Positions 30,717-49,280 of a stretch of 64,000 bases of DNA are shown here, piece after piece. Position 1 is the first letter of the stretch. Every line of letters starts with the position of its first letter. A program made the translations under genes and the position numbers. Below the pieces are notes generated by a model. The model did no database searches, was not told the origin of the DNA, and worked only from the letters and a program-made list of their open reading frames with translations. Origin of the DNA: Planctomycetaceae bacterium (GTDB taxonomy: Bacteria; Planctomycetota; Planctomycetia; Pirellulales; UBA1268); assembly GCA_947453375.1 (NCBI GenBank), contig CANGGT010000001.1:11381-75380 (forward strand). Reading direction: 5' to 3'.

Positions 30717-30789
30717 GCCGTTTCGTCCCTGGAATTGCCCGTTCGTCCCTGCCCATGCCCATTCGTCCCTGCCCACGCCCATTCGTCAC
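30717..30789. repeat. About 3.5 tandem copies of a 20-bp motif, ~100 bp upstream of the PEP-CTERM gene
   Basis: gccgtttcgtccctggaatt / gcccgttcgtccctgcccat / gcccattcgtccctgcccac / gcccattcgtcac. The core TTCGTCCCTG recurs at 30722, 30742 and 30762 (TTCGTCAC at 30782). Confidence 0.6.
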
Positions 30790-30895: not shown

Positions 30896-31693
30896 ATGAA
30901 CAGCTTCTTCGCTTCAGCGGCTCGTGTGTGGTGCCGAGTCGGTGCTACTGCGTTCGTCCTCGTGTCCCTCACCAACGTTGCTTCCGCCGTGAGTGTGGCC
31001 ACCAACACGCTCAACAACCCGGCTCTGCCACTCAAAGTTTCGTTGTCGCACACCGGCAGCGGACCGGGCTCACGGACCGACATCATCACTCATGCCCAGC
31101 CTTTCCATTTGAGCCCGGTCGGTTCGCAAGGGGACATCATCCGAGGCGTGGAGGCTTACACGCATGGCCTTCAAATGGATCCGCAGAATCTCCGCATCGG
31201 CATCTATGCGAACATGGTCGACTTTCAACAACTCCAGCCCCCGGCGATCGGCACCATCGCCGTCGATGTTCCGGACCTCAGCACCGCACTGATCGAGTTC
31301 GGGACACCGACGGTGACCACCTTCTCCGACGTTTCGGGAACTTCCTGGACCGCCAGATTCACCCCGCGTGTGTTGAGCAACCACTTCCTTCCGTCGAACG
31401 CTTCCCCCTACTGGATCGTCTATTCGCTCGTCGCCGACCAAGAGCTTTTCTTGGACGGGGTCGCGTCCGGCTTGCCCTTCCCCGAGTCGACCCGGGCCGA
31501 GTACTTCTTCAACGGCAGTGACCCCGTGACCCCATCGTGGGTCACCCAGGGCCGTGCCGTCGCCGCGTCGATCGAGTACGTCGCCGTCCCCGAGATCGAC
31601 CCGAGCAGTTTCGGCAGTGCCCTGTCGCTTGTCGTCGGCGCGATCGCGCTTTGCGAACGGCGCCGCCTCCGCGGGTGTGCGTCGGCCTCCTGA
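30896..31693 (+). CDS. Secreted PEP-CTERM sorting-domain protein
   Basis: 265-aa track ORF. It has an N-terminal signal peptide (VGATAFVLVSLTNVASA) and a C-terminal VPEIDPSSFGSALSLVVGAIALCERRRLRG (PEP motif + TM + basic cluster). It uses visibly more A/T-ending codons than its neighbours. Confidence 0.75.
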   Translation: MNSFFASAARVWCRVGATAFVLVSLTNVASAVSVATNTLNNPALPLKVSLSHTGSGPGSRTDIITHAQPFHLSPVGSQGDIIRGVEAYTHGLQMDPQNLRIGIYANMVDFQQLQPPAIGTIAVDVPDLSTALIEFGTPTVTTFSDVSGTSWTARFTPRVLSNHFLPSNASPYWIVYSLVADQELFLDGVASGLPFPESTRAEYFFNGSDPVTPSWVTQGRAVAASIEYVAVPEIDPSSFGSALSLVVGAIALCERRRLRGCASAS

Positions 31694-46321: not shown

Positions 46322-47587
46322 ATGCACCCAGCCATGGCAGCCCCTCACGGCCGTTCGTCCACCCGATCCGAATCCGATCCCGCCGGCCGCACTCGCGGCC
46401 GCACGGGGCTGTGGCTCATCGGCGCCAAAGGGGGCGTGGCGACGACCGTGATCACCGGTCTGGCGGCCCTGGCCCGCGGCGCGACCGAGCCGCACGGCCT
46501 GGTAACGGCGCTTTCCCACTGTGCGCCGCTCGATCTGGTCGGCTTCGACGAGATCGTCATCGGCGGCCACGACATCCGCCCCGGCCACCTCGCCGACGAG
46601 GCGCGGCGGATGTGGGTCGAGAGTCGGGCGATCACCCCGGACGTACTCGATGCCGCCGCCGACTCCTTCGCCGCCATCGAGCAGCGGCTCCGTCCGGGCA
46701 CCGTCGTCGCCGCGGGGGACAAAATCCGCGAGCTGGCCGATCCTTCGGTCGCGAATGTCGTCGAGACCCCTCGGCAGGCGATCGACCGGATCCGCGCCGA
46801 CATCGAAGCCTTTGCGGCCCACGACCATCTCCAGCACGTCGTCGTCGTGAACGTCGCCTCCACCGAGCCACCGGCCGGCCGCCCGATTCCCGAACGCTGG
46901 AGCGAGGTCGCCTCGCTTCTCGGCGATGCCGCTGCCTGCCCCCTGCCGGCGAGCAGCCTCTATGCCGTAGCTGCCTTCGAGGCCGGCGCGTCGTACGTCA
47001 ACTTCACCCCGTCCACCGGCTCGACGCCGCCGGCCCTGTGCGAACTGGCCCTCGAGCGCGGCCTGCCCCACGCCGGCTGCGACGGCAAGACCGGCGAGAC
47101 GCTCCTCAAAAGCGTCCTCGCGCCGATGTTCGCCGCCCGCAACCTCGAGGTGATGAGCTGGGTGGGGCACAACATCTTCGGCAACATGGACGGCAAGGTG
47201 CTCGACGATCCGCGCAACAAGGCCGCCAAGGTGCGCAGCAAGGATCACCTTCTCGCCTCGATCCTCGGCTACCCCCCGCAGACCCACGTCTCGATCGAGT
47301 ACATCCGATCCTTGGGCGACTGGAAGACGGCCTGGGACCATGTCCACTTCCGCGGCTTCCTCGGCACGCCGATGACGTTCCAGTTCACCTGGCAGGGTTG
47401 CGATTCGATCCTCGCCGCGCCGCTGGTCATCGATCTGGTACGTCTCACCGAGCGTGCCTGGCGCGGCGGCGAGCAAGGGATGCTGCGTGGCTTGGCGCCG
47501 TTCTTCAAGAGCCCTCTCGGTGTCGAGGAACAGGATTTCGCCAAGCAGTGCGCCATGCTCGATGCATGGATCGAATCACTCGCGTGA
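46322..47587 (+). CDS. ino1: myo-Inositol-1-phosphate synthase (archaeal/bacterial type)
   Basis: 421-aa track ORF. Motifs: LWLIGAKGGVATT, NFTPS, DGKTGETLLKSVLAPMF, WDHVHFRGFLG. Confidence 0.88.
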   Translation: MHPAMAAPHGRSSTRSESDPAGRTRGRTGLWLIGAKGGVATTVITGLAALARGATEPHGLVTALSHCAPLDLVGFDEIVIGGHDIRPGHLADEARRMWVESRAITPDVLDAAADSFAAIEQRLRPGTVVAAGDKIRELADPSVANVVETPRQAIDRIRADIEAFAAHDHLQHVVVVNVASTEPPAGRPIPERWSEVASLLGDAAACPLPASSLYAVAAFEAGASYVNFTPSTGSTPPALCELALERGLPHAGCDGKTGETLLKSVLAPMFAARNLEVMSWVGHNIFGNMDGKVLDDPRNKAAKVRSKDHLLASILGYPPQTHVSIEYIRSLGDWKTAWDHVHFRGFLGTPMTFQFTWQGCDSILAAPLVIDLVRLTERAWRGGEQGMLRGLAPFFKSPLGVEEQDFAKQCAMLDAWIESLA

Positions 47588-47698
47588 AGCGAGCCGAACC
47601 GCGTCGCTGACGCGCTCCACGACAGCGCTGCGTTCGATGCGCGACGGTCGATGACGACAGCCCGCCGAAAAAAATCGTGACTTCTCCACGATTTTCTC

Positions 47699-47895
47699 TT
47701 GACAGTTTTCGGCGCAATCCTTCACAACACACACAGTGATGCGATCAAGGCGTCATTGTCGACCCGCCGATTCGGGGTCCGACGAGACCATTCAATCGGA
47801 TTCGTTTCCGGTACGTCGTCCGATCCCTTCAACAGAGTGCCCGAGGGATCGGTCGAAGGTTTGAGTTCGGGTGCTCGACGCTAGGAGCCATCACC
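47699..47895 (+). promoter_or_regulatory. Putative promoter plus ~170-nt structured leader of the Lys-rich micro-ORF
   Basis: This is the lowest-GC stretch of the window. It contains TTGACA at 47699-47704 (weak -10-like TCACAA 17 nt later), a perfect 9-bp hairpin ccgatccct (47820-47828) / agggatcgg (47844-47852), and AGGAG at 47883-47887. Confidence 0.3.
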
Positions 47896-47955
47896 ATGGC
47901 GAAGAAGAAGAAGAAGGCTGCCAAGAAGGTCGCCAAGAAGAAGGGCAAGAAGTAA
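47896..47955 (+). CDS. 19-codon Lys-rich micro-ORF (MAKKKKKAAKKVAKKKGKK)
   Basis: ATG 47896 lies 8 nt after AGGAG and the stop is TAA 47953-47955. It is too short for the ORF track. It is flanked by its own promoter-like region and a strong terminator. The overlapping Glu-rich track ORF 47871..48077 lacks an SD. Confidence 0.45.
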   Translation: MAKKKKKAAKKVAKKKGKK

Positions 47956-48040
47956 TTCCTTCCCGGCGACGATCCGCGACGCGGCCTCAGGCCGTGCGAG
48001 CGGGCACCGAGCCGGGAACCCTTCCTGACCAGACGAGAAA

Positions 48041-48082
48041 GGCCGGCCCGGGCCCTTGGGCGCCCGGGCCGGCCTGATTTTT
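48041..48082 (+). terminator. Rho-independent terminator
   Basis: 12-bp GC stem ggccggcccggg (48041-48052) / cccgggccggcc (48063-48074), followed by tgattttt. Confidence 0.65.
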
Positions 48083-48149
48083 GCGCCCGTCCCCAACTTT
48101 TCCGGTGCGGCCGCTTCCGTCCGGCCCGTTCTCAGGCCATAGTGGCCGG

Positions 48150-49280
48150 ATGAACGACCCCGAACCACGTGGTGAGTATCTTCTCGTCGCCTGCCAGGCC
48201 GGCGCCGAGGATATCGTCGCCGCCAGAATGGCGCAGGCCCTGCCCGGATCGACCCGCGGCGCCTGGCGGCGGGGGGTCGTCACCTTCCGCCTCCCTCCCG
48301 GCCTCGACCCGAGCCCCGCCGAACTCGATCGCGTTCGCGATCAAATCGTCGTCGCCCGCACGCTCTTCCGGTGCTACGGCCAGATCCGTTGGGAGGATGA
48401 CGCCGGAAGGCTCACGGCCCTCCGCGAGCGCCTCCCCACCGCGCGGTTTGATGCTGTCCATCTTTATCCGCGCGATCTCCGGGCCCTCGCCGCGGCCGAC
48501 GTCGTCGCCGACATGCCCCGTCTGGCCACGGCCGCAGGGCTCGCCGCGGCCTTCCCGGAGGCGACGCTCGGCATCGCCCGTCCGGGAGATCTCGTCCTTG
48601 ACTGCCTCTCCGACGGCGACGATCGCTGGTGGATCGGGTGGCACCGGGCCCAGGCGCCGTCGACCTGCTGGCCGGGGGGCCTCTATCCGCGTCCCCTTCC
48701 CGGCGACAAGGTGTCGCGGGCGTGGCTCAAGCTCGACGAAGCGATCGCGAGCTTCGGTGTCGAGTTTCGCGAAGGGCAACACGTCTGCGAACTCGGAGCT
48801 TCCCCTGGCGGTGCCTGCCAGCGACTCCTCGAGAGTGGCCTCGAAGTCGTCGGCATCGATCCGGCGCTCGTCGATCCGGTGGTCGCGGCGATCCCCGGCT
48901 TCACGCAATGGCGGAAGCGCGCCAGGGACGTGCCGCTGCGCGACCTGCGCGGCTTCGAGTGGGTCGTGGCCGACATGAACATCGATCCGACGAGCACCCT
49001 CGAGGCGATCGGTCGCGTCGTCACCGCGCCCGGGTCGCGGGCCGGCGGGATCATCGCCACCCTCAAGATTCCCGACTGGTCGCGGGCCGCGGGCCTCGAT
49101 GCATGGCTCGGGCAATTCCGCTGCTGGGGATTCACGCCGCGGGCCCGGCAGCTCTCCACCGGCGGCCGCGAGGTGTGTGTCGTAGCGCTGCGCACGGGAG
49201 GGCATCGCTCCCGGCAAGGCAAAGCGAAGGCCGCCGTGGTCAGGCGGTCGCGCCCCGCCAGACGTCGGCCGGATCAGTGA
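48150..49280 (+). CDS. RlmM-like FtsJ-type rRNA 2'-O-methyltransferase
   Basis: Start at ATG 48150 within track ORF 48081..49280. It has the SAM loop VCELGASPGGACQRL, DMN and a THUMP-like N-terminal half. The basic C-terminal tail overlaps the birA 3' end by 41 nt. Confidence 0.72.
   Translation: MNDPEPRGEYLLVACQAGAEDIVAARMAQALPGSTRGAWRRGVVTFRLPPGLDPSPAELDRVRDQIVVARTLFRCYGQIRWEDDAGRLTALRERLPTARFDAVHLYPRDLRALAAADVVADMPRLATAAGLAAAFPEATLGIARPGDLVLDCLSDGDDRWWIGWHRAQAPSTCWPGGLYPRPLPGDKVSRAWLKLDEAIASFGVEFREGQHVCELGASPGGACQRLLESGLEVVGIDPALVDPVVAAIPGFTQWRKRARDVPLRDLRGFEWVVADMNIDPTSTLEAIGRVVTAPGSRAGGIIATLKIPDWSRAAGLDAWLGQFRCWGFTPRARQLSTGGREVCVVALRTGGHRSRQGKAKAAVVRRSRPARRRPDQ

Follow-up and report, generated by a model that had tools for sequence, protein, structure and literature searches.

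The described systems closest to the locus reported here are tiny basic ribosomal proteins, bacterial histone H1-like proteins and the Downstream-peptide riboswitch. The ribosomal proteins bTHX, bL37 and bS22 and the eukaryotic and archaeal eL41 are very small and highly basic, with about 20–30 amino acids (aa) and a mixed content of arginine and lysine. The operators of the ribosomal proteins S15, S4 and L20 are structured, pseudoknot-type leaders located beside the ribosome-binding site. The Downstream-peptide motif, or glutamine-II riboswitch, precedes a short open reading frame (ORF) that was recognised by synonymous changes and whole-codon insertions and deletions (Weinberg 2010, PMC2864571). 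The Rhodopirellula-1 motif from the same study (Weinberg 2010) is a bulged hairpin with 153 representatives and the consensus AACAA..GAU..GAAC...UGACGUU, which was flagged as repeat-like. Here, we analyse a gene unit within a stretch of 64,000 nucleotides (nt) from a Planctomycetaceae bacterium (contig CANGGT010000001.1), called the window in the following; all positions refer to this stretch and all features to its + strand. In a compact space of about 350 nt, the unit combines a putative promoter, a leader with a covarying pseudoknot, a micro-ORF of 19 codons encoding the lysine-rich peptide MAKKKKKAAKKVAKKKGKK and a nearly invariant terminator.

This unit belongs to none of its nearest analogues. 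With bTHX, bL37, bS22 and eL41 it shares size, extreme basicity and strong expression signals, and with autoregulated ribosomal protein genes it shares the pseudoknot-type leader at the ribosome-binding site as well as neighbours linked to ribosome biogenesis. Unlike the tiny ribosomal proteins, to which no sequence similarity is detected (Pfam and NCBIfam at E≤1, PDB at E≤10), its basic residues are lysine only, and the expansion of repeats takes its length from 19 up to 86 aa. Its leader is not matched by any Rfam model of a ribosomal protein leader. The H1-like proteins, which include Hc1 and Hc2 of Chlamydia, those of Burkholderia and Bordetella and AlgP of Pseudomonas, resemble the peptide family in their Lys/Ala-rich low-complexity composition (here 55–63% Lys with VAKKK/AAKKK repeats), in a variable repeat number, in their occurrence in the Planctomycetes–Verrucomicrobia–Chlamydiae (PVC) superphylum and in what would be tight translational control. 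However, scores fall far below the cut-offs of HC2 PF07382, NF038052 and NF038053, and the common form has only 20 aa, whereas these models span about 195–200 positions. We know of no counterpart of the conserved pseudoknot leader and the invariant terminator among H1-like proteins. The arrangement of a conserved pseudoknotted 5' untranslated region (UTR) followed by a short conserved ORF is that of the Downstream-peptide motif, but its Rfam model finds no match, and sequence, taxa and peptide are different. Like the Rhodopirellula-1 motif, the leader is a planctomycete RNA upstream of short hypothetical genes and outside Rfam. Identity with that motif was rejected, as it is a repeat-like hairpin of another consensus and not a single-copy pseudoknot.

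The preliminary description of the window had proposed a very small, highly basic peptide of no named family, and the database searches agree with it. Short and long peptide variants give nothing significant in Pfam and NCBIfam, where the 20-aa and 67-aa forms find no match, and no PDB chain at the thresholds given above. An exact look-up of five peptide variants in a collection of 15 billion proteins found none of them, and an exact look-up of the synthase protein encoded upstream of the unit in the window gave no record either. A homology search with the 67-aa form returned a single low-complexity protein, which carries an HC2 domain. The comparison with the covariance models of Rfam 15, which had been proposed as a check, yields no family at the gathering score in the whole window; at E≤10 over 47550–48200, only chance matches to the terminator hairpin are seen. 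In the literature searched, nothing relevant was found on these peptide strings, on lysine-rich small proteins or on short ORFs of Planctomycetes and Pirellulales. None of the protein, RNA and literature resources consulted contains the conserved gene unit.

The lysine-rich micro-ORF

Relatives of the unit were collected along two routes. With the synthase protein as query, species-representative genomes gave 80 Pirellulales/Planctomycetota loci, and a scan of metagenomes with 22 nt of the terminator gave at least 120 contigs. All loci were reached via the synthase gene or the terminator, so that neighbourhood statistics are biased, and all compared sequences are phylogenetically related, so that counts overstate the number of independent events. 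ORF, leader and terminator occur together at 17 of these 80 genome loci, and more than 100 metagenome contigs carry the same combination; we judge this recurrence to lie far beyond chance. The metagenome-assembled genome records of several loci (L002, L005, L011, L017–L020) are titled Candidatus Kuenenia, Chitinophaga or Chitinophagaceae and are probably mislabelled bins.

The micro-ORF is located at 47896–47955 (19 codons and stop), as first described, and encodes a peptide of 2.1 kDa with an isoelectric point of 11 and a charge of about +11.5. Lysine occupies 12 of the 19 codons (63%), all of them AAG, the preferred Lys codon. In the 17 genome loci, the Lys-rich micro-ORF lies about 200–570 nt 3' of the synthase gene; the variants have 19–25 aa, and the peptide is identical or near-identical across these loci. 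The usual form is MAKKKKKAAKKVAKKKKGHG with 20 aa, which is also the commonest among the ORFs of the metagenome contigs listed (49 cases). Every listed contig with enough upstream sequence contains a Lys-rich ORF of 18–68 aa, except for L109 and L097. In L097, the start codon of a 66–67 aa variant is changed from ATG to ATC, and L144 carries a frameshifted copy of this variant; both are either sequencing errors or pseudogenes.

The substitution pattern is that of a protein-coding gene. We compared 63 sequences of the 20-aa class that differ by at most 6 nt from the consensus. They comprise 10 distinct variants, of which 9 are synonymous third-position changes or switches of the stop codon and one is a conservative exchange of Val for Ala. 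All three stop codons are in use (TGA, TAG and TAA 69, 23 and 13 times, respectively). Length differences between ORFs are whole codons, with start, composition and often a GHG or GHA end retained, and the non-Lys residues are conserved as well. The other two frames, Glu-rich and Arg-rich, were rejected as coding frames: they have no conserved start, stop or length and stay open for 24–718 codons. The preliminary description had held that conservation following the overlapping Glu-rich frame would speak against the micro-ORF; conservation follows the Lys frame. Because changes are synonymous, insertions and deletions comprise whole codons and the alternative frames lack conserved limits, we conclude that the ORF is under selection as a protein. 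An amphipathic helix was considered for the peptide and rejected, as its hydrophobic moment is not significant against shuffled sequences (p about 0.1–0.15).

The peptide is not restricted to its short form. In the close clade and the metagenomes, lengths form a series from 18 to 68 aa, and in distant Pirellulales they reach 43–86 aa; all of these peptides are Lys/Ala-rich. Eight distant loci (L036, L053, L055, L057, L074, L075, L079 and L080) contain Lys/Ala/Ser/Thr-rich ORFs of 43–86 aa in the same architecture. L025, L026 and L030 likewise contain longer Lys-rich ORFs that combine this type of promoter with a pseudoknot, a GGAGCC-ATGGC start and the GACGAGAAAGGCCG terminator. On this comparison, MAKKKKKAAKKVAKKKGKK is the short end of a Lys/Ala-rich low-complexity family that ranges from 18 to about 86 aa and has a common promoter type, leader and terminator.

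Leader pseudoknot and translation start

The preliminary description had proposed a leader of ~170 nt. A long structured leader is indeed present, and counted from the putative transcription start near 47735 its length is corrected to about 160 nt (47735–47895). The 5' part of this leader is variable and hairpin-forming, while its 3' 80 nt are conserved in the alignment. The perfect 9-bp hairpin noted at 47820–47828/47844–47852 holds up and turns out to be one stem of an H-type pseudoknot. It is the core of stem S1, in which 47817–47828 pairs with 47844–47855; in the window, this stem contains a T-T mismatch at 47819/47853. The 5' strand of stem S2, GAGTGCCC, is located in the loop of S1 at 47835–47842 and pairs with the 3' strand GGGTGCTC at 47869–47876, which ends 6 nt before the Shine-Dalgarno sequence and 19 nt before the ATG. 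With two covarying helices of 12 pairs (S1) and 8 pairs (S2), of which the second joins the loop of the first to sequence further downstream, the leader has the arrangement of an H-type pseudoknot, and the predicted loops of 6, 1 and 16 nt would be compatible with this fold. The unpaired nucleotides ACGUCG and AGAG are invariant.

Covariation in relatives, which the preliminary description had named as a check of the leader, is found in both helices. A MAFFT alignment of 18 genome sequences gave 17 distinct rows, in which 97.4% of the cells in S1 and S2 pair and 10 of the 20 base pairs show compensatory changes. With 68 distinct sequences, 95.9% of the cells pair and 16 of the 20 pairs are compensatory. 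For S1, compensatory pairs number 7 of 12 among the 17 distinct sequences and 11 of 12 among the 68, with 94% of the cells paired in the larger set. In S2, 98.8–100% of the cells pair and 3–5 of the 8 pairs are compensatory (98.8% and 5 of 8 with 68 sequences). Sliding the partners by 1–3 columns reduces pairing to 39–52% in the 68-sequence alignment and to 37–54% in the 18-sequence alignment, and pairing in shuffled controls is also far lower than in the real stems. RNAalifold independently predicts S1.

A covariance model was built from S1 alone, with S2 outside the model structure. It finds one match per locus, always directly 5' of the ORF; this applies to the window, the 17 genome loci, L025, L026 and L030. 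It also matches 88 of the 100 metagenome loci listed; the remaining loci are truncated. The same pseudoknot topology was obtained de novo in the distant loci L025, L055, L057 and L075, where the 3' end of S2 is located 19–23 nt before the ATG. The best matches of the close-clade model in distant loci, though marginal (E 0.14–2.4), lie at the expected place. A covarying pseudoknot that adjoins the ribosome-binding site supports the earlier suggestion of a regulatory leader.

The Shine-Dalgarno sequence AGGAG at 47883–47887 is followed by the ATG at 47896, in line with the spacing of 8 nt described before. Relatives have AAGGAGCC, and AGGAGCC is invariant in 18 genome units at the fixed distance of 8 nt from the ATG. 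The Shine-Dalgarno sequence lies outside the pseudoknot, and the spacer between the two varies in length. A small hairpin, GCCAT-CACC-ATGGC, can be drawn over the start codon at 47887–47900. RNAalifold predicts its four inner pairs (GCCA/TGGC) in 18 of 18 sequences; these pairs are invariant, so that covariation neither supports nor refutes them, and a fifth pair, T-A, is taken from the letters of the window only.

Promoter, terminator and gene neighbourhood

The TTGACA box that had been noted at 47699 is present at 47699–47704 and is part of the conserved sequence TCTCTTGACAGTTTTC in 17 of 18 aligned genome units. CTTGACA occurs in 87 of 105 units, and the promoter alignment shows a conserved block TCTCTTGACAGTTTTC-N6-ATCnTnCACAAC (87 of 105 units). 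Within ATCnTnCACAAC, CACAAC at 47723–47728 starts 18 nt past the -35 box and may serve as a -10-like element. A strict sigma-70 scan called no promoter here, and there is no TATAAT-like hexamer after TTGACA. At the position equivalent to CACAAC, distant relatives have TTCAATGCGCG. The close clade thus displays TTGACA-N18-CACAAC and the distant clade (L036, L055, L057, L074, L075, L079 and L080) TTGAC-N~23-TTCAATGCGCG. Both blocks together suggest a Pirellulales promoter type with a -10 element other than TATAAT. The predicted transcript 47735–48082 folds with z = -4.0 relative to shuffled sequences.

Upstream of the -35 box, an A-run, a 6-bp hairpin (47674–47679/47687–47692) and a T-run are read from the sequence at 47668–47698. 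An arrangement of like type precedes TTGACA in nearly all relatives. It is probably the terminator of the synthase gene, an A/T-rich upstream promoter element, or both.

At the 3' end, the ORF is followed by a structured 3' UTR (47956–48039) with a stem at 47960–47967/48011–48018, in which a C-G pair is changed to T-A (or T-G) in the 19-aa subclade. Among relatives, the distance from stop codon to terminator ranges from 26 to 213 nt, and the sequence in between is not alignable. Directly 5' of the terminator hairpin, at its foot, lies the conserved single-stranded box CAGACGAGAAAGG (48030–48042). A search for a complementary target of this box found none beyond chance within the 64-kb window. 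The intrinsic terminator itself had been described as a 12-bp GC hairpin with a T-run at 48041–48082. The terminator is supported by the terminator scan; the stem is longer than described and contains 14 pairs, 13 of them G-C, from 48040 to 48075, with a loop of 8 nt and GATTTTT up to 48082.

In the terminator, the sequence itself is retained. Of the 80 genome loci obtained with the synthase, 18 contain GAAAGGCCGGCCC, each of them exactly once, and cAGACGAGAAAGG together with the 14-bp hairpin is almost base-for-base identical in these 18 genomes, which span 47–73% GC and were found independently of the terminator. The invariance inside the metagenome set is circular, as those contigs were picked by this sequence. 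In distant loci, the flanks GACGAGAAAGGCCG...CGGCCT are kept and the inner stem changes with compensation (L036, L053, L055 and L074); GACGAGAAAGGCCG itself is retained in the distant L055 and L074. This invariance goes far beyond the need for termination, and the element may be a protein-binding or processing site. A repeated element was considered and rejected, since the terminator is single-copy in the window.

The region of the unit holds the most AT-rich 300-nt stretch in the window, with a GC content of 0.54 at 47651 compared to 0.692 overall. As stated in the preliminary description, this stretch lies between a synthase and a methyltransferase gene, and family matches confirm both. The upstream flank is a myo-inositol-1-phosphate synthase (profile matches to PF07994/PF01658). 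The downstream flank is an FtsJ-like methyltransferase with a distant, sub-cut-off match to RlmM. A divergent class I/II aminotransferase gene and a convergent gene of the biotin ligase family form the outer flanks. The gene order in the close clade is aminotransferase (-), synthase (+), micro-ORF (+), methyltransferase (+) and biotin ligase (-). Among the metagenome contigs listed, the methyltransferase follows the unit in 90 of 91 and the synthase precedes it in 59 of 77. In the other 18 of 77, including L082, L091 and L093, the synthase is missing and the unit directly follows the divergent aminotransferase gene, which weakens the idea of an obligatory tie to inositol-phosphate synthase.

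The methyltransferase start lies at a median of about 78 nt past the terminator, and in several contigs the first in-frame ATG is found 1–24 nt past it. A start this close leaves no room for an own promoter, and partial read-through into the methyltransferase gene is therefore likely. The unit had been regarded as a self-contained transcription unit. The comparative data support this view in general, but the unit is perhaps not fully self-contained, as methyltransferase starts within about 1–25 nt of the terminator in some relatives suggest read-through.

In 7 distant loci, the unit is located directly 5' of a DEAD-box RNA helicase gene, and in 3 of these 7 a distance of more than 2 kb separates it from the synthase. 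Where no separate Lys-rich ORF precedes the helicase (L032, L039, L047, L048, L062, L070, L073 and L078), its N-terminus tends to be extended by a long basic stretch, and helicases that do have a separate Lys-rich ORF (L036, L053, L055 and L075) mostly have no such extension; open-frame starts were used for this comparison. The distribution hints at a possible fission or fusion between the Lys-rich ORF and the helicase N-terminus.

Elsewhere in the window, the second most AT-rich stretch contains 3.3 tandem copies of a 20-nt unit with the consensus TTCGTCCCTGCAAATGCCCA, at 30722–30787. The copies are located just upstream of an ORF that starts at 30896 and has a signal-peptide-like N-terminus.

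Proposed function of the peptide and its leader

We propose, at roughly even chances of being right, that the unit is a ribosomal-protein-like, translationally tuned gene for a nucleic-acid-binding polycation. Several features are signals of expression: the nearly invariant -35 box, AAGGAGCC at its fixed distance, the exclusive use of AAG for lysine and a transcript with z = -4. The peptide would act via its charge: as a polycation free to diffuse, it would coat nucleic acid or serve as its chaperone. Since length varies freely, we expect binding to be electrostatic and not of the lock-and-key type. The target would lie in rRNA or ribosome biogenesis and in RNA remodelling, by analogy with the tiny basic ribosomal proteins. 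We favour RNA and the ribosome over DNA because the constant neighbours encode either an RlmM-like 23S rRNA methyltransferase or, in distant loci, a DEAD-box RNA helicase; this assignment of the target is tentative and we place it a little below even chances. The pseudoknot, which borders the 30S binding site on its upstream side and leaves the Shine-Dalgarno sequence free, would be a translational operator of the ribosomal protein type. The polycationic product, or other multivalent cations, would stabilise its fold and in this way determine the amount of peptide. The terminator would end most transcripts, with a fraction reading through into the methyltransferase gene.

Several points weigh against this proposal. 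Transcription, translation and binding are all predictions from sequence. The neighbourhood evidence is weak, given that the loci were reached via synthase or terminator, that the sequences are related and that strong terminators separate the unit from its neighbours, and the 64-kb window holds no helicase. Repeat expansion from 19 to 86 aa is unexpected for a stoichiometric ribosomal protein and fits non-specific polyanion binding, including that of DNA. Because the Shine-Dalgarno sequence is not sequestered, the pseudoknot could be a stabiliser or enhancer and not an operator. The near-invariance of the terminator is left unexplained by the model. In one contig (L109), ORF (GTG start, 57 aa) and terminator are kept together with a different leader that gives no model match.

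The same length variation would suit a DNA-condensing nucleoid protein of the histone H1 or protamine type. Such a protein would neutralise the charge of DNA and contribute to the condensed nucleoid that is typical of planctomycetes, as Hc1 and Hc2 do in the related Chlamydiae, with the structured leader restraining a potentially toxic product by tight control of translation. Composition and repeats (VAKKK/AAKKK, 18–86 aa) are typical of proteins resembling the H1 C-terminal domain, and the only database match of the 67-aa form carries an HC2 domain. By composition, long variants weakly match histone H1-like models (NF038053 with E=0.013, HC2 with E=0.12–0.8). The nucleoids of planctomycetes including Pirellula are condensed, and the proteins responsible are not established (PMC3440768), which also speaks for such a role. 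However, the forms of 63–66 aa reach only 10–16 bits with these models, compared to cut-offs of 40–135, no DNA-binding domain is present, and the constant neighbours are RNA-directed enzymes rather than DNA-related genes. We consider a nucleoid protein possible but rather unlikely. It is less probable still that the peptide is secondary and the RNA is the main product, dual-function or purely regulatory, with either the pseudoknot or the 3' box and terminator as functional part, possibly as a 3'-derived small RNA or a protein-binding site. Conservation of the UTR elements equals or exceeds that of the ORF, with a 3' end that hardly differs between 18 genomes; the predicted transcript is rich in structure, and a conserved single-stranded box directly before the terminator hairpin is also seen in many small RNAs. 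Against this stand the protein-like substitutions and whole-codon length changes of the ORF with its retained start, composition and frequent GHG/GHA end, and the finding of neither a 3'-box target beyond chance within the window nor a matching Rfam family.

Two further alternatives concern the regulatory logic of the leader. Instead of an operator for the gene's own product, the pseudoknot could be a riboswitch that responds to an ion or small ligand such as Mg2+, a polyamine or some other metabolite. Its compact H-type fold, its invariant unpaired nucleotides, its deep conservation and its place directly 5' of the ribosome-binding site would suit such a switch, and the pseudoknotted Downstream-peptide motif before short ORFs is a precedent (PMC2864571). 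Yet the Shine-Dalgarno sequence lies outside the structure behind a variable spacer, the motif is seen before one gene family only, and Rfam gives no match, so that we regard a riboswitch as quite improbable. The ORF could also be a lysine-codon leader peptide whose translation controls the terminator by attenuation and, with it, the methyltransferase. A run of potentially regulating codons (Lys at 12 of 19), a strong terminator 3' of the ORF and a methyltransferase that is nearly always downstream and sometimes too close for an own promoter are all present. The gap between stop codon and terminator, however, is anywhere between 26 and 213 nt long and unrelated in sequence, and by eye no conserved antiterminator is found, for instance in relatives with 47% GC. 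It is implausible that variants of 45–86 aa, in which Lys codons number up to about 40, act as leader peptides, the conservation extends to non-Lys residues, and the rRNA methyltransferase or helicase downstream is unrelated to lysine. Classical lysine attenuation is unlikely, and control of the methyltransferase by this route would in our view be a most improbable function of the ORF.

Returning to the polycation gene with a translationally tuned leader, a more far-reaching version can be formulated, which we put forward as a speculation of low probability. In Pirellulales, a ribosomally made oligolysine of 18–25 aa, expandable to about 86 aa, would be a dedicated macromolecular counter-ion of RNA or DNA. 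The pseudoknot in its own leader would sense polycations and adjust how much of it is made, a feedback device without a described counterpart. The gene would perhaps have split from the basic tail of a DEAD-box helicase, and proteins would bind specifically to the invariant 3' hairpin, or read-through would be controlled there.

Provided that it is made, the peptide would rank with the smallest and most lysine-rich of the conserved gene products of bacteria. The gene has been overlooked by gene callers, as seen from the absence of the 20-aa form from a collection of 15 billion proteins, and the unit is apparently widespread in the scanned metagenomes, many of them seemingly from lakes. Its leader adds a well-supported pseudoknot motif outside Rfam at the usual place of translational operators. 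For the planctomycetes, the peptide is a candidate for how these bacteria neutralise and compact their nucleic acids, a question that has stood since their condensed nucleoids were described.

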